The notes under the pieces: generated by a model
Database searches by the model: none
What the model saw: only the letters and a program-made list of their open reading frames with translations
Told to the model about the DNA's origin: nothing
In this document: positions 5,349 to 9,454 of the stretch, piece after piece
Numbering within the stretch: the first letter of the stretch is position 1
Layout of the letters: each line of letters begins with the position of its first letter
Made by a program: the position numbers and the translations under genes
DNA from: a virus
Lineage: Duplodnaviria; Heunggongvirae; Uroviricota; Caudoviricetes
Reading direction: 5' to 3' (one strand)
DNA: 10,763 nt
IMG/VR virus record: IMGVR_UViG_2526164690_000049

Positions 5349-7166
5349 TTAATTTTTGCTATCGTCATTAGTGACCGATACACATGATGGCATCCAGTCT
5401 TCTGATTCCTCCGTCAGTGTCACGTTTGAACGCAAACCGTGCTTCGTTTTCCGTTTCATATACTCCCTGCCATATTCCGCCATTGCCCCCGGCATATCTT
5501 TACCGAAGCGCGTCAGTGTTACAGGTTTACCGAATCCGTGTGCCCTCATATATGCCAGATAGGCGTGATAAAGATACCTGCGCGGACTGAACGGAATAAT
5601 TTCGGCATTACCCACTAACAGACCATCACACATTACCGACGACATGAGATAGCCGCAGAAGTCCACCAGCGAATCGCCCTCGCGTTTTATCACCAGAGCT
5701 TCTTCTGATTTCTGCTGCTCATACAGCAGGCGTTTAGCTGCGTCCTGGTCAGAAAAACGAGTAAGCAGGTGGCGAATCACAACCGCCAGCTCTCCTTCTA
5801 TTTTTTCTGCCAGCATGGGGTCGCGTTCGTTTTCCGGTACAACCTCCGAAAAATTGAATATCACCCGACGACGTGAAATCCCCCCGCTGCGGTCACTGAA
5901 TGACATGGCGTTATTGTTCACCGCCAACACTACCGCCTGAATGCGTGTTGAGTAGGGGGCTTTATGCTTCGGGTCGATTGCCACCTTGTCACCGCCTGTA
6001 ATGGCCTTAATTCCTGCGCCATCACCAGCGTAACGGGTCATATCCGGCATGATAATCAGCGAAAAGCCAACCACTAACGCGCGTTCCCTGGCATCTTCCA
6101 GCGCCTTCATGCTTGCCGATACCGTGTTGGCCTTACCCGCCAGCATGGTGCAAATCTCCGCCATCACGCTTTTACCACTTCCCCCTGGACCTGTTACCTC
6201 AATGAATAACTGCCAGTCGTACCGGTTCGCCAGCACCATGAATAATGCAGCCAGTACGCGATCCGCCTTGCGGTCATTCTCAGCCACCGAACGGCGTAAC
6301 CACTTCCAGAAATTCGGCGCATGTGTTGCCAGCGTTTCCCCCTCTGCTGGTGGGCTGAAAGGTAATTCACTGGCAATTAACAACCAGTCGTTTTTGTTAT
6401 GCTCCCGAAAATCGCCTGTCCGGGTATCAAAAACACCGTTACTGAATCCAATCAGGTTACGGGCTGTATTCCCCATTACAGGCAAACTTAACTTCATGGT
6501 ATCGACCGCCGATTTAATGGCGTTCTGCGAATAGCTGATCTCCGCATCAATGAAAATCTGTGCCATAGCTCGCTGTAATTCTTTATCCTGTACTGGCTCC
6601 CATACAACGCCGTTGTAATAGTGAACAGTGTCAGAGTCAGCATGAATCGCCAGTTCACCGCCATAATGTGCCAGGAGAACTTCGCCGCGTTGACTTGCTC
6701 CCATCTGGTTAAGCGCCAGTGATGAAGCGTTATCGTCTTTTACCCGCTCTTTTTTCTTTACAGGCAGTTCAACTACATTTTTCTTTTCCGTCAGCTCTCC
6801 CCGCTCACGTTCCAGATATTCGCGCCAGTTCTCCCGTTTCTGGCTGTGCATTCCTTCAGGGTAATAATCAGCATCCCTGACACCTGCCGCTGCCAGTTTC
6901 TGCCCGATGGTATTAACAAGCCCCGAACGCAATAACCCCGCCTGATAGAGACGCACGCGATAGCGTCCGTCCGGTACGATTTGCAGGTTGTCCAGTTCGG
7001 CAAGTTGTTGCTCTCCAAGCCAGACAGGTGGCACGCTGTCGCCAGCCAGTCGCCCGTCCTGTTCCTGCCACTGCTTCGCATGTGCCCACGCATCACTACC
7101 CGCAAAAATGATGACTTCCGTCATTTTGTCACGTGGCTGGTGTTTTAAATTTGGCGCTTTTTTCAT
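5349..7166 (-). CDS. P4-family primase/helicase-like replication initiator (D5-N-like region plus SF3-type NTPase with Walker A)
   Basis: 605 aa from ATG 7166-7164, which overlaps the TGA (7165-7163) of the upstream ORF, with GGAGAGAG upstream; the ORF track starts it at GTG 7181. Walker A VTGPGGSGKS; later acidic IIMPD segment that may be Walker B. Overall architecture matches phage/plasmid primase P4-type C-terminal proteins. No canonical primase active-site motif recognised by eye. Confidence 0.85.
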   Translation of the reverse strand: MKKAPNLKHQPRDKMTEVIIFAGSDAWAHAKQWQEQDGRLAGDSVPPVWLGEQQLAELDNLQIVPDGRYRVRLYQAGLLRSGLVNTIGQKLAAAGVRDADYYPEGMHSQKRENWREYLERERGELTEKKNVVELPVKKKERVKDDNASSLALNQMGASQRGEVLLAHYGGELAIHADSDTVHYYNGVVWEPVQDKELQRAMAQIFIDAEISYSQNAIKSAVDTMKLSLPVMGNTARNLIGFSNGVFDTRTGDFREHNKNDWLLIASELPFSPPAEGETLATHAPNFWKWLRRSVAENDRKADRVLAALFMVLANRYDWQLFIEVTGPGGSGKSVMAEICTMLAGKANTVSASMKALEDARERALVVGFSLIIMPDMTRYAGDGAGIKAITGGDKVAIDPKHKAPYSTRIQAVVLAVNNNAMSFSDRSGGISRRRVIFNFSEVVPENERDPMLAEKIEGELAVVIRHLLTRFSDQDAAKRLLYEQQKSEEALVIKREGDSLVDFCGYLMSSVMCDGLLVGNAEIIPFSPRRYLYHAYLAYMRAHGFGKPVTLTRFGKDMPGAMAEYGREYMKRKTKHGLRSNVTLTEESEDWMPSCVSVTNDDSKN

Positions 7167-7462
7167 TTCTGCTCTCTCCACGCGGCAATCATGTTTTTCA
7201 GTTCCTGTAGTTTTTTATCAACATCCATACATGGCACATGGTTGTTTCTGGAAGGCGGGATTTCCCGCCTGAATCTGCTAATAAAGATCTCCACGTTCAG
7301 CGAACTATGAAATGAATAGCCATCACGAATAAAATACACACGGTCAAACATCAGTTCTTTTACCGTTACTCTGTTACCGTTCTTATCCAGATAAATAGCG
7401 CCGGGGATAATTTTTGGGTGTGCATAACCGCTGGCAGTCAAGCCAGATAAATATGTTCTCAT
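7163..7462 (-). CDS. Hypothetical protein, 99 aa, translationally coupled to the primase/helicase gene
   Basis: ATG 7462-7460 lies 6 nt after the stop of the upstream ORF; its stop overlaps the primase ATG. No family recognised. Confidence 0.55.
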   Translation of the reverse strand: MRTYLSGLTASGYAHPKIIPGAIYLDKNGNRVTVKELMFDRVYFIRDGYSFHSSLNVEIFISRFRREIPPSRNNHVPCMDVDKKLQELKNMIAAWREQK

Positions 7463-7468
7463 GATTAT

Positions 7469-7789
7469 TTATCCCCGATTTGAATCAGTATTCGCTTTCT
7501 TTATGGCATTTAATGCATCTGTGGCATTTTCAATGGTGCACCGTAACGAAATATCAAACTGCCCAAGCATTGCCAGTAACAAGCCAATATTACCCATGTC
7601 AATGCGCATAGCCTTTTCGTCATATTCCTCATTTTCTGACGCATGCCACATCAGGCTACCAATTGACGAAACAGCCATTGATATATTGTCAGTAGCCCCA
7701 TCCGCAGCGGAATAAACCTTTTTAGCAATATCATGCTCACAGTTAAAATGCGGATTAATCAGGTACTGGTAATTGGTCATGTCAGGCAT
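7469..7789 (-). CDS. Hypothetical protein, 106 aa
   Basis: ATG 7789-7787 preceded by AGGGGGTG (strong SD); overlaps the stop of the upstream ORF by 8 nt. No family recognised. Confidence 0.55.
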   Translation of the reverse strand: MPDMTNYQYLINPHFNCEHDIAKKVYSAADGATDNISMAVSSIGSLMWHASENEEYDEKAMRIDMGNIGLLLAMLGQFDISLRCTIENATDALNAIKKANTDSNRG

Positions 7790-7985
7790 GGAACACCCCC
7801 TGACGAATACGGGCGGCGAATACCATCACGCAGCCATCAGGAGATTGCTGACGCGCTTCCTGTTCGCTGGTGGCCTCGATGGTAATCACGCGCGGTTGTG
7901 CCGTGCTCAGGGCGATAAAACGCCAGATGTATTTATTCAGGTTGTGCGAGTCCCGCCCTTGCGGGTGTATGGTATGATTTCTCAT
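7782..7985 (-). CDS. Hypothetical protein, 67 aa (alternative TTG start at 8072 would give 96 aa)
   Basis: ATG 7985-7983 has GAGG 5 nt upstream. The track's longer form begins at a TTG with no SD. First gene of the operon downstream of the divergent control region. Confidence 0.45.
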   Translation of the reverse strand: MRNHTIHPQGRDSHNLNKYIWRFIALSTAQPRVITIEATSEQEARQQSPDGCVMVFAARIRQGVFHA

Positions 7986-8083
7986 AGCTGCCTCGATACT
8001 CTCGTTATCGTTGGTGGTTAGACGCCCCGTATGTGTTTCCGGCACTGCGGGGCGTTGCTCTTTGTATTTCAAAAATCATTTCG

Positions 8084-8161
8084 GTGTGTTTCATGTTATG
8101 AGCGCATGAAACACACGCCAAGGCTTTTTGTATTTCTTTTTTTGTGTATACTGAAACACAC
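8084..8161. promoter_or_regulatory. Divergent control region: perfect 12-bp inverted-repeat operator plus a third half-site overlapping a -10-like element
   Basis: GTGTGTTTCATG (8084-8095) and CATGAAACACAC (8105-8116) are exact reverse complements separated by 9 bp. TGAAACACAC recurs at 8152-8161, overlapping TATACT (8147-8152), 31 bp upstream of the ATG at 8183. A weaker copy GTGTTTCC lies at 8033-8040. Confidence 0.5.
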
Positions 8162-8182
8162 CGATGATTAGGAGTTTCAGAA

Positions 8183-8488
8183 ATGGCAACAGCTAACAAA
8201 AACGCAAAATCACAACTGACAACTGTCAGAGTCCCACTAGATGTTATGCAAGGGATGGAATCCGTTAAGCTGGACGGCGAAAGCAATGCCGGATTTATCG
8301 TAACCGCCATGCGCGGAGAAATAGCCCGCCGCCAAGCAGAAGGCAGCGGAGAAAATCCCCTTGTGTCGTCACTGGATGCCCTGGCTAAGGTCGAACAAAT
8401 CGGCATCAAAGCAGCGGAAGAAATCGGGCAGCTTGTCACCGTTGCACGCGAAGAACTCCAGCGTCGCAAGACCAAAGAACCAGAGTAA
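8183..8488 (+). CDS. Putative small DNA-binding regulator (possible ribbon-helix-helix type), 101 aa, divergent from the replication operon
   Basis: AGGAG 8 nt upstream of the ATG. The N-terminal segment TVRVPLDVMQGMESVKLDGESNAGFIVTAMRGEIARR has a strand / helix / Gly turn / helix layout compatible with an RHH fold; this is a visual guess only. The antisense 308-aa minus-strand ORF looks like a low-complexity artefact. Confidence 0.55.
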   Translation: MATANKNAKSQLTTVRVPLDVMQGMESVKLDGESNAGFIVTAMRGEIARRQAEGSGENPLVSSLDALAKVEQIGIKAAEEIGQLVTVAREELQRRKTKEPE

Positions 8489-8530
8489 TCACCATCAGCG
8501 CCGTGGTGTAAGGTATTACGGCGCATTGCT

Positions 8531-8719
8531 ATGCAGGACAACACAATGACCGATAAAGAATTGACCAAAACATTATCACCGGCACGGAAAAGACGGCGCA
8601 GAAAGATAGAGCATGAATCAGAAAGATTCGCGCCATGTGCTTTTGCCCTTGAGCAATTCCTTAAAGAGTACAGGGAAAAGCGCTCATTGCAGGTATGGCA
8701 ACGAACTGAACCAGACTGA
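8531..8719 (+). CDS. Hypothetical small basic protein, 62 aa (or 57 aa from ATG 8546)
   Basis: Follows the 101-aa gene on the same strand. Contains the basic run ARKRRRRK. SD is weak; CAGGAC precedes the second ATG. A plus-strand terminator lies downstream. Confidence 0.4.
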   Translation: MQDNTMTDKELTKTLSPARKRRRRKIEHESERFAPCAFALEQFLKEYREKRSLQVWQRTEPD

Positions 8720-8810
8720 TAGCATTGCCCACCAGCCTGATAGCGACTATCATTTCCGTTCTTATGTTTGGGATCACACACACAAACGGCGCAGCGGGTT
8801 ATCTGTTCAG

Positions 8811-8842
8811 AAAGGCGGCTCCATTTCGGGACCGCTTTTTTT
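8811..8842 (+). terminator. Rho-independent terminator of the plus-strand gene pair
   Basis: GGCGGCTCC (8814-8822) and GGGACCGC (8828-8835) form a stem with one mismatch around loop ATTTC, followed by TTTTTTT (8836-8842). Confidence 0.6.
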
Positions 8843-8983
8843 ATTCCTGAAAAACCCCAATTTTGTTGTTTTTCAGTTTCACCAGGGCGAACGAATCCCC
8901 GCCCACGTTCGGGCGCATATTCAATCTTCATGGTTATATCTCTGTATTAGTGGATGTGTGGCGGCTGCGTGCCGCCAGCGTGA

Positions 8984-9172
8984 TTAATGAACTGCCTTGC
9001 AGCTATCCTTCCAGGCCAGAACCTCGGATAAAGACCAGCCAACGGAACGACCGCCAAGTTTACGACGTGATGGGAATTGTCCGGCCTTTTCCAGGCGGTA
9101 GCGGCATGAGCGGCTAAGGCCTGTTAGCTTTTCGCATTCTTTTTCACGTATAAACCGATCAGTGCTTAACAC
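8984..9172 (-). CDS. alpA: AlpA-family transcriptional regulator (Xis-like small HTH protein)
   Basis: 62 aa. KLTGLSRSCRYRLEKAGQFPSRRKLGGRSVGWSLSEVLAWK matches the AlpA-family signature as I remember it (TGLSRST.YR...G.FP....LG.R.VGW...EV..W). Starts at GTG 9172-9170 with AAGGGGG 6 nt upstream. Sits downstream of int on the same strand. Confidence 0.85.
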   Translation of the reverse strand: MLSTDRFIREKECEKLTGLSRSCRYRLEKAGQFPSRRKLGGRSVGWSLSEVLAWKDSCKAVH

Positions 9173-9331
9173 TATTGCCCCCTTTCGTTTCTTAAAGAGT
9201 TATTTCGTGTTCTATTGCGTTGGGATGTGTCTGATTGTGTCAGGATGATTCAGAGTTGGCAAATGTTGAGGCTGTATGGTTTACAGAAAGAGGAATAATC
9301 AGGATAAAATCATTTAAATTCATGTTAATAC

Positions 9332-9363
9332 AAAGGCATAAAATATTGTTTAATGCCTTTTTT
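9332..9363. terminator. Terminator-like hairpin in the int-alpA intergenic region (candidate int terminator, possibly bidirectional)
   Basis: AAAGGCAT (9332-9339) and ATGCCTTT (9353-9360) are perfect complements around a 13-nt AT-rich loop. T-run through 9363 on the plus strand; UUUGUAUU follows on the minus strand. Confidence 0.4.
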
Positions 9364-9454
9364 CTCGCTATTTAAAGAGTGATTCGCTAGTGTATAAAAA
9401 ACCAGTAACACATTAAAAATCAGCTACTTATAAATCTGTACACTTTTTCGCCTC

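Follow-up and report, generated by a model that had tools for sequence, protein, structure and literature searches.

A candidate ribbon-helix-helix repressor and its putative operator array in the control region of a capsid-forming phage satellite of Escherichia coli

Phage-inducible chromosomal islands (PICIs) of Escherichia coli have been described as AlpA-activated elements, with the matter of a global repressor left “unclear” (PMC6092414). Fillol-Salom et al. 2018 reported that helper phages induce alpA and that AlpA activates EcCICFT073, acting on its own promoter as well as on a reporter fused to ORF3 of that island (PMC6092414). In Staphylococcus aureus pathogenicity islands (SaPIs) and Gram-positive PICIs, quiescence is maintained by Stl or Rpr, encoded on the same strand as int (PMC6092414). 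The paper on capsid-forming PICIs (cf-PICIs) makes no mention of a repressor, and the HE-PICI study, in which “-DUF3950” appears in PICI gene-order strings, describes a dynamic “Bro zone” with immunity RNAs and no protein repressor. Here, we analyze positions 7,986 to 8,488 of a 10,763-nt viral record (IMG/VR record IMGVR_UViG_2526164690_000049, the whole of which we call the window), in which a 101-amino-acid (aa) open reading frame (ORF) of the YlcI/YnfO family diverges from an operon opening with an icd-like gene. This ORF, hereafter ylcI, is already catalogued as an opposite-strand DUF3950 gene in PICI gene-order tables, and the literature we searched, with most subscription journals outside its coverage, held no functional description of YlcI or YnfO as a regulator. 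We consider it likely that the region is the repressor-operator switch of a cf-PICI satellite, with the YlcI-family protein, predicted to adopt a ribbon-helix-helix (RHH) fold, as the repressor. ylcI is a good candidate for the master repressor thought to be lacking in Gram-negative satellites. A preliminary description of the same DNA had seen in it the layout of a repressor-controlled bidirectional promoter, distinct from the AlpA-activated scheme known for E. coli PICIs; the literature agrees with its account of AlpA (PMC6092414), and the comparative evidence below supports the layout.

Among described systems, the immI region of phage P22, where the Mnt and Arc repressors control Pant and Pmnt, offers several likenesses to this locus. 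Mnt and Arc are small RHH repressors, Mnt consisting of an N-terminal RHH domain and a C-terminal helical oligomerization domain; the operators overlap back-to-back divergent promoters, and the controlled operon opens with small regulatory or antirepressor-type genes. The RVPLDV that follows the beta-strand of the window protein also resembles the R-x-P-x-[DE]-V of Arc (RWPREV) and Mnt (RMPMEV). However, there is no significant sequence membership (hhalign probability ≤9%), P22 has one operator of 17–21 bp whereas five sites are phased at ~22 bp here, and the present gene belongs to a satellite with an AlpA activator and lies antisense inside a long open frame. Stl and Rpr are helix-turn-helix proteins. 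As with ylcI, their gene is divergent from the excision/replication operon and sits between the int side and the replication side, but the candidate here is an RHH protein that converges on alpA and int, in an element that also has an activator.

The central feature of the region is a perfect 12-nt inverted repeat, GTGTGTTTCATG at 8084–8095 and CATGAAACACAC at 8105–8116, whose arms and 9-nt spacer were recovered by direct reading and by repeat search exactly as first described. By our own arithmetic, ~0.013 such repeats with a loop of ≤20 nt are expected per 10.7 kb. This one extends to 26-nt arms with 81% complementarity and is the longest inverted repeat of the window, where the sole other inverted-repeat cluster is that of GGTGAACAGT at 5152–5326. 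A third exact copy of the half-site, TGAAACACAC, lies at 8152–8161, and together with its flank (8152–8164) it forms a perfect 13-nt inverted repeat with 8081–8093. The window has three exact occurrences of this 10-mer, clustered within 78 bp; allowing ≤1 mismatch gives five matches against 0.77 expected, a count reached in 0 of 200 shuffles. When we searched for the best repeated 9-mer, five sites emerged at −120, −98, −76, −54, and −31 from the ylcI ATG, ~22 bp apart, three of them exact and two weak, with the shared core GTGTGTTTCA (sites A to E, Table 1). The three half-sites noted initially are thus present, yet they belong to a larger five-site array. The same periodicity appears in a 14-nt direct repeat (8057–8070 and 8123–8136, including site A) with a spacing of 66 bp, or 3 × 22. 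No convincing copies were found upstream of alpA or int or elsewhere in the elements, and therefore there is no evidence for YlcI control of alpA.

To place this array in context, we assembled a set of 24 related loci, drawn from E. coli genomes, from other genera, and from assemblies. All 24 share a layout in which int, alpA, an icd- or ash-like gene, DUF4222, and primase follow one another on one strand, and ylcI occupies the other strand between alpA and icd, followed by a variable small gene or by none. The divergent arrangement is not peculiar to the window element but widespread, and it is found also in EcCICFT073 (L002, recognized by capsid and decoration genes matching c1499 and c1500), whose YlcI-family gene is divergent from icd and encodes 59 aa without the C-terminal domain. 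The beta-strand QL(T/F)TVRV is common to eight loci from E. coli, Xenorhabdus, Photorhabdus, and Serratia. These show no or almost no variation in the arms TGTGTTTC and GAAACAC(A) or in the third copy, and the 13–15 nt between the arms differ freely. Across the relatives we distinguished nine motif classes, which keep the same site positions relative to both promoters but have a different motif each; motifs of the other classes include TGTGATTCAG, TGGTATTCA, GTGAGATAYAC, GTGTGTATTTA, GGTGTGCATACAG, TGG(T/G)ATTCA, GTGTAAGAC, and, in CFT073, GGTGTGGCCCAC, of which two exact copies lie ~23 bp apart in EcCICFT073. Most of these motifs came from an automatic repeat search, and those of L021 and CFT073 (GTGTAAGAC and GGTGTGGCCCAC) were read by eye. 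Site orientation varies between classes, with spacing kept.

The motif follows the beta-strand of the neighboring YlcI protein. A cross-matrix of motifs against regions was mostly block-diagonal by beta-strand class, with some cross-matching between classes whose motifs are one base apart, such as those of the window and L019. The two copies on one Xenorhabdus contig (L012 and L013) are of the same class, so orthogonality does not hold everywhere. When the beta-strand is aligned on the R-W-P motif of Arc, the residues predicted from the Arc contacts to touch bases are 12, 14, and 16. In E. coli, Xenorhabdus, Photorhabdus, and Serratia, these residues are L, T, and R and go with the same motif, and different triplets accompany different motifs. 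The window and EcCICFT073 have AlpA proteins that are 95% identical, Icd proteins that are 95% identical, and identical orf62 products (100%), but only 55% identity at the YlcI N-terminus, and their motifs are unrelated. Conversely, L017 and L018 share YlcI and motif but differ in alpA and int types, as do L023 and L024. Because the arms are invariant, the positions are kept, and the motif tracks the beta-strand rather than AlpA, Icd, or orf62, the repeats behave like YlcI operators.

This specificity appears to move as a unit. In pairwise identity profiles, which we used because a sliding conservation profile across several classes was too noisy, identity to L003 is ≥95% up to ~8002, drops to 45–60% over ~8040–8240, and returns to 85–100% beyond; relative to CFT073, the flanks of the cassette are 90–100% identical. 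The exchangeable unit is sharply bounded at ~230 bp and comprises the operators and the first ~20–35 codons of ylcI. The class motifs are concentrated in the 160-bp operator region and essentially absent from the rest of the 5–20 kb examined per element.

The protein itself belongs to a defined family. The 101-aa ORF had been taken as coding, and this is borne out: it matches NCBIfam YlcI_YnfO_N (NF041551) at 63.2 bits against a cut-off of 30, with residues 9–50 spanning the whole 42-position profile, and its RefSeq product name agrees. Homologues form 216 clusters in a large protein database and come from more than ten Enterobacterales genera, including Escherichia, Salmonella, Citrobacter, Klebsiella, Enterobacter, Yersinia, Serratia, Xenorhabdus, Photorhabdus, and Edwardsiella; some clusters are named “Arc-like DNA binding domain” proteins by UniRef, and a PHROGs family of exactly 101-aa length is labelled as of unknown function. 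A tblastn search of 50,697 phage records with YlcI gave no match. In a 40-member alignment, residues 36–101 are highly conserved and residues 2–35 fall into discrete variants.

The fold had been guessed to be RHH, and at that level the guess was correct. AlphaFold2 models an extended N-terminus, helices at 19–28 and 35–53, a low-confidence Gly-rich linker, and a long helix at 59–98 (predicted local confidence, pLDDT, 82; 84.7 for the N-domain alone). This gives an RHH DNA-binding domain at 1–53 with the ~45-residue beta-alpha-alpha order of the MetJ/Arc/CopG fold, a linker at 54–58, and a C-terminal domain at 59–98 that is a long helix or resembles a helix-hairpin-helix (HhH). Sequence variation concentrates in the beta-strand and tracks the DNA motif, which would indirectly support a homodimer whose paired N-terminal strands enter the major groove, the models being monomers. 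Foldseek was blind to a domain this small, and neither Arc, Mnt, nor CopG turned up when PDB sequences were searched by profile. The same search gave a borderline match between the Hef HhH domain and the C-terminal half (E 0.003), and within residues 59–86 (8357–8440) there is an HhH-like motif, LAKVEQIGIKAAEEI, of the pattern LxxVxxIGxKxAxxI, in which I73 and G74 are invariant. The C-terminal half may be either a Mnt-like oligomerization helix or an HhH-like motif, AlphaFold2 drawing one continuous helix. Among fold neighbors, Omega of pSM19035, CopG, and AmrZ act as RHH dimers that bind several short direct or inverted repeats cooperatively. However, the Omega heptads are contiguous and the sites here lie two helical turns apart, which implies bridging via a separate domain.

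The sites coincide with two predicted promoters, which we placed by a relaxed 12-position score and by conserved position. The leftward promoter is the best minus-strand match (8/12), and its position is kept in 13 of 15 related loci spanning all classes, with scores of 8–10/12 and sequences such as TTGACA-17-TAAAGT. The rightward −10, TATACT here and TATAAT or TATATT elsewhere, ends at −31 in most loci. The two −35 regions are back to back, and sites D and E bracket the rightward −10. The third repeat copy had been placed over this −10, but it begins at the last base of the hexamer and extends across the predicted +1 instead. The flanking units are oppositely oriented as first described, with the 101-aa ORF on the plus strand and the icd-like gene, hyp106, DUF4222, and primase on the minus strand; the facing unit, initially called a replication operon, is divergent but opens with the icd-like gene, and the replication genes lie further down. 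The locus thus shows the layout of a PICI master repressor, a gene divergent from the operon with putative operators on both intergenic promoters.

In the leader of the icd-like gene, the stems of a GC-rich hairpin (8022–8055) are kept across a 13-locus alignment that includes all operator classes, with compensatory changes at two inner pairs; it matches no Rfam family at E ≤ 1. It is followed by a T-rich tail on the plus strand, so it could double as a plus-strand terminator. In most relatives, site B is adjoined by a further conserved palindrome, CACCTTGA-N5-TCAAGGTG (L002 6082–6102 and the equivalent place, approximately −118 to −98 from the ylcI ATG, in L003, L005–L009, and L013), which is missing from the window. 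In L010, L011, and L014, this position instead holds a DnaA-box-like TGTGGATAA or TGTGGACAA. The palindrome may be a site for another factor.

Table 1. Coordinates of the features discussed, in window positions
Feature	Position	Strand	Basis or remark
Site A, TGTATTTCA (weak, one mismatch)	8063–8071	+	in transcribed leader of leftward operon
Site B, TGTGTTTCA (left palindrome arm)	8085–8093	+	overlaps leftward −10 and predicted +1; invariant in 8 sequences from 4 genera
Site C, TGAAACACA as read on + (right palindrome arm)	8107–8115	−	fills spacer beside leftward −35
Site D, TGTATTTCT (weak copy)	8129–8137	+	in spacer of rightward promoter
Site E (exact third copy)	8152–8160	−	starts at last base of rightward −10, covers predicted ylcI +1
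Predicted leftward sigma-70 promoter, icd-like/replication operon	8093–8121	−	−35 TTGGCG (8121–8116), 17 nt, −10 TAACAT (8098–8093)
Predicted rightward ylcI promoter	8125–8152	+	T-rich −35 region, 16 nt, −10 TATACT (8147–8152)
Shine-Dalgarno AGGAG of ylcI	8170–8174	+	direct reading; GGAG invariant in cross-genus alignment
ylcI/ynfO-family gene, 101 aa, candidate repressor	8183–8488	+	family match, conservation
orf62, small basic protein, co-transcribed with ylcI	8531–8719	+	phrog_21027 at 1.6e-15
Intrinsic-terminator-like hairpin with T7 run, end of ylcI-orf62 unit	8815–8842	+	direct reading
GC-rich hairpin in leader of icd-like gene, ACGCCCCG ... CGGGGCGT plus inner stem	8022–8055	−	8-nt perfect inverted repeat
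Stop-free frame, 308-codon ORF from ATG at 8931	8005–8931	−	antisense through orf62, ylcI, and whole operator region
icd-like gene	7782–7985	−	NCBIfam phage_ICD_like 9e-20; RefSeq; leads leftward operon, followed by hyp106, DUF4222, primase
Primase gene	5349–7181	−	RefSeq annotation
alpA (activator)	8984–9172	−	Pfam Phage_AlpA 5e-18; convergent with ylcI-orf62; upstream of stop-free frame
int	9546 to beyond 10763	−	RefSeq annotation of identical island

From the sequence features, fold, co-variation, and conserved promoter positions that we observed, we infer a mode of action in which YlcI both binds these sites and represses transcription, as the computational evidence supports. YlcI dimers, probably joined through the C-terminal helical domain, would bind the five sites two helical turns (~22 bp) apart. 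The leftward icd-like/primase promoter has its −10 and −35 bracketed by sites B and C, and YlcI's own promoter is bracketed by sites D and E, a geometry suited to steric repression of the leftward operon combined with negative autoregulation. In a resting island, the replication operon would then be shut off and YlcI's own synthesis limited. The DNA-reading N-terminus and the operators would travel together as the swappable ~230-bp cassette, creating island-specific specificities. This would be a Mnt-like way of working, in a protein that the sequence tests do not place in the Arc/Mnt family.

How such a repressor might be overcome is suggested by satellite P4, in which eta lies directly downstream of an alpA homologue, spans the internal constitutive promoter P_LE and the immunity region, and ends in the small nested gene kil; translation of eta from the upstream late activator-dependent promoter prevents termination (PMC10111431). 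In the window, a minus-strand frame is open for 313 codons (8946–8008), beginning 40 nt after alpA and ending 20 nt before the icd start. All segments were open in 0.02% of randomizations (synonymous-codon shuffle in plus-strand genes, dinucleotide shuffle elsewhere), the non-coding parts contributing most (P 0.06 for 8008–8182 and 0.01 for 8720–8946). Of 21 related loci, 15 keep this frame open over 285–635 codons, and in 14 of the 21 it is continuous with the reading frame of the icd- or ash-like gene. Over the operator region, it lacks a stop in seven of nine independent classes (per-class chance 0.025–0.13), whereas the other two minus-strand frames have 1–6 stops. We found no amino-acid-level constraint in the frame: outside the plus-strand genes, substitutions fall evenly over antisense codon positions, and the Ser/Arg/Cys-rich translation has no family match and resembles antisense junk. 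By its placement, and by its continuity with icd in many relatives, the frame is a positional analogue of P4 eta. The systems differ in that P4 immunity is RNA-based (CI/seqA), whereas here a protein repressor gene appears embedded on the opposite strand, and no Rfam C4 or isrK match was detected in the window at E ≤ 1. At E ≤ 1e-3, a tblastn search of the phage collection with the Icd-like protein gave nothing from P4, the presence of a P4 record in that collection being unchecked.

By analogy, we propose with modest confidence that the alpA transcript would be translated across this frame, antisense to ylcI, to reach icd and the replication genes. Induction, a less certain step than repression, would start when a helper phage induces the self-activating alpA; its transcript would continue on the minus strand through the stop-free translated frame, crossing ylcI and the operators antisense into the icd/replication genes, so that the repressor is at once bypassed and silenced. 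Taken as a whole, the scheme that Gram-negative PICIs and cf-PICIs have a YlcI-family RHH master repressor, lying antisense within an eta-like frame, flipped by translation-protected AlpA read-through, and diversified by cassette exchange into at least nine orthogonal immunity types is a tentative one that we hold possible rather than probable. Within this scheme, the alpA transcript would at once express the replication genes and, by convergent transcription, silence the repressor.

Terminator-like hairpins are enriched in 7700–9400 (nine vs. 1.9 expected), mainly at 8216–8350 and 8682–8706 on the minus strand. Several of the minus-strand hairpins lie inside ylcI and orf62 antisense and would block alpA read-through unless translation or antitermination suppresses them. 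A strong hairpin, GGCGGC-acgca-GCCGCC (8960–8976, minus strand), without a U tract, directly follows the alpA stop and precedes the ATG of the long frame. RefSeq, through the PGAP annotation pipeline, records pieces of the frame as a pseudogene (8374–8931, minus strand) and as “Icd-like” proteins in L002 (5800–6273, CFT073, 157 aa) and L003 (3388–3867). These look like annotation artefacts spread by homology.

Several observations weigh against reading the region as a YlcI-controlled switch. Overexpressed AlpA is by itself enough to induce EcCICFT073, and AlpA is all that the published model requires (PMC6092414); any repression must therefore allow a bypass. Because the operators adjoin the sequence for the YlcI N-terminus, their co-variation could partly be linkage within one recombination block. 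A simple promoter scanner called neither promoter, and the rightward one is the less certain of the two because of its poor −35. The distance from site C to site E is 45 bp, which is no exact multiple of a helical turn. The Pfam search of the 101-aa protein returned nothing significant, with no Arc (PF03869) match at E ≤ 0.1, and hhalign gave E 0.0036 but 9% probability for Arc and E 0.047 and 1% for Mnt. Finally, the stop-free frame is broken in 4 of the 21 loci.

One alternative is that the repeats are real regulatory sites bound by another factor, namely AlpA, the Icd-like protein, or a host protein, and that YlcI does something else. No regulator of these islands other than AlpA has been shown by experiment, PHROGs gives the label “transcriptional repressor” to the families that match the Icd-like protein, and linkage alone could make the ylcI N-terminus co-vary with neighboring DNA. 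However, AlpA, Icd, and orf62 are nearly identical in the window and EcCICFT073 despite the unrelated motifs, and the L017/L018 and L023/L024 pairs keep YlcI and motif across different alpA and int types. Loci from other genera with the same beta-strand likewise keep the motif, though AlpA there is 30–48% identical or undetectable, and a host factor would have no need of nine motif classes. We therefore judge this explanation unlikely. Another reading, in which ylcI-orf62 is a type II toxin-antitoxin pair whose RHH antitoxin autoregulates only its own operon through the palindrome and leaves the replication operon alone, is quite unlikely, given that no conserved cognate toxin could be recognized: the downstream gene encodes 62, 57, 67, 84, or 178 aa, is unrelated between elements even where they have the same ylcI, and is absent in L023, and orf62 matches no toxin family. 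The strongest sites, B and C, moreover lie on the leftward promoter rather than on that of ylcI.

The reading frame of ylcI was itself in question, since the 308-codon ORF crosses the region on the other strand. That ORF could be the true product, a “long Icd-like” protein, with ylcI non-functional and the repeats coding or incidental; its length here, the long open frames often continuous with icd among the relatives, its same-strand depiction in PICI maps, and the PGAP fragments together with the 157-aa CFT073 protein all speak for it. Substitution patterns point the other way. Over codons 36–98 in 14 homologues, differences at ylcI codon positions 1, 2, and 3 numbered 1044, 748, and 3048. 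The third positions of the two frames coincide, but the asymmetry between positions 1 and 2 is normal for ylcI and runs opposite to that expected of a coding antisense frame, which indicates that ylcI is the protein under selection. The YlcI translation was also better conserved than its antisense counterpart in 89 of 91 pairs and never worse, and its N-domain is an independent family with an RHH fold, whereas the antisense translation has the evenly spread substitutions, skewed composition, and lack of family match noted above. A functional long product is thus very improbable. Both frames are nonetheless compatible, and the minus frame may be translated without encoding a functional protein. 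A last alternative, for which we see only a slight chance, takes the phased array as an architectural or centromere-like site, bound by a ParG- or Omega-type RHH protein, that would serve the excised island in plasmid-like maintenance or in packaging instead of switching transcription. Omega (2bnw) and other RHH proteins do bind direct or inverted repeat arrays, and the variable site orientation at fixed spacing would fit, but the element has no ParA-type ATPase in its RefSeq annotation, and the −35, −10, and +1 of two conserved promoters fall on the sites. Omega and ParG also repress transcription, so a centromere role would add to the switch proposed here and not replace it.

The host of this putative switch can be identified. 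Over the 1.9 kb around it, the window matches a chromosomal island of E. coli O111:H11, a Shiga toxin-producing E. coli (STEC), at 100% identity, and islands in O157:H7, O103, and other STEC genomes at 99.9%. RefSeq annotates the O111:H11 island, on the window minus strand, with an integrase, an AlpA-type regulator, the Icd-like protein, two small proteins (one with DUF4222), primase, single-stranded DNA-binding protein (SSB), and PerC, and further with major capsid, protease, portal, head-tail, HNH, and terminase proteins. With int, alpA, and primase alongside its own capsid, protease, portal, head-tail connector, and terminase genes, and without tail or lysis genes in this 100% identical locus, the element is, on gene content and by comparison with the description of EcCIEDL933, a cf-PICI satellite. 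The 503-bp region has partial matches in 1620 of 5426 complete genomes, with at least 80% of the region present in 485. A single genome has up to six matching places.

In the window, the only credible plus-strand genes are ylcI and orf62. The hairpin ending this unit was not called by a simple terminator scanner because its stem has one mismatch. The slot downstream of ylcI is a hot spot: orf62, with a very basic N-terminus, occupies it in the window and in CFT073, unrelated ORFs of 67, 84, or 178 aa do so in other elements (L017–L024), a Bro-N gene lies nearby in L024, and it is empty in L023. Direct and inverted GGTGAACAGT repeats cluster at 5152–5326, just downstream of the primase gene, and probably form the island's replication origin. 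An Rfam scan of the whole window at E ≤ 1 gave two spurious plant-miRNA matches over these repeats and nothing else. Tblastn of Icd against the 50,697 phage records found a single match, an induced 16.5-kb element.

Relatives of the candidate repressor also occur outside satellites. YlcI of DLP12 and YnfO of Qin in E. coli K-12 belong to the same NCBIfam N-terminal family, but they are ~64 aa long without the C-terminal domain and lie beside terminase/cos of lambdoid prophages rather than in a satellite regulatory region. K-12 ylcI (L025 4252–4446, DLP12) is a 64-aa gene divergent from nohD, the terminase small subunit gene, near cos of this lambdoid cryptic prophage. The presence of a family member in a lambdoid prophage means that helper-type phages carry relatives of the satellite's candidate repressor.

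The proposed switch is built from known kinds of parts: an RHH repressor paired with an array of operators, a master repressor of the divergent PICI kind, and a nested frame like that of P4. It would not amount to a categorically new mechanism. EcCIEDL933 probably carries the module as well, given the 99.9% identity of the region in O157:H7 genomes. A large part of E. coli harbors PICIs and cf-PICIs, which move virulence and defense genes. If the proposal is true, a divergent RHH repressor with swappable specificity would be the missing half of the Gram-negative PICI switch, and it would explain the silence of the replication and icd-like genes. It could also explain how several related islands avoid cross-regulation in one cell, and it would provide a set of small orthogonal repressor-operator pairs. 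The antisense frame, in turn, would tie PICI control to the eta/kil logic of P4 and suggest a common ancestry of the regulatory layout.

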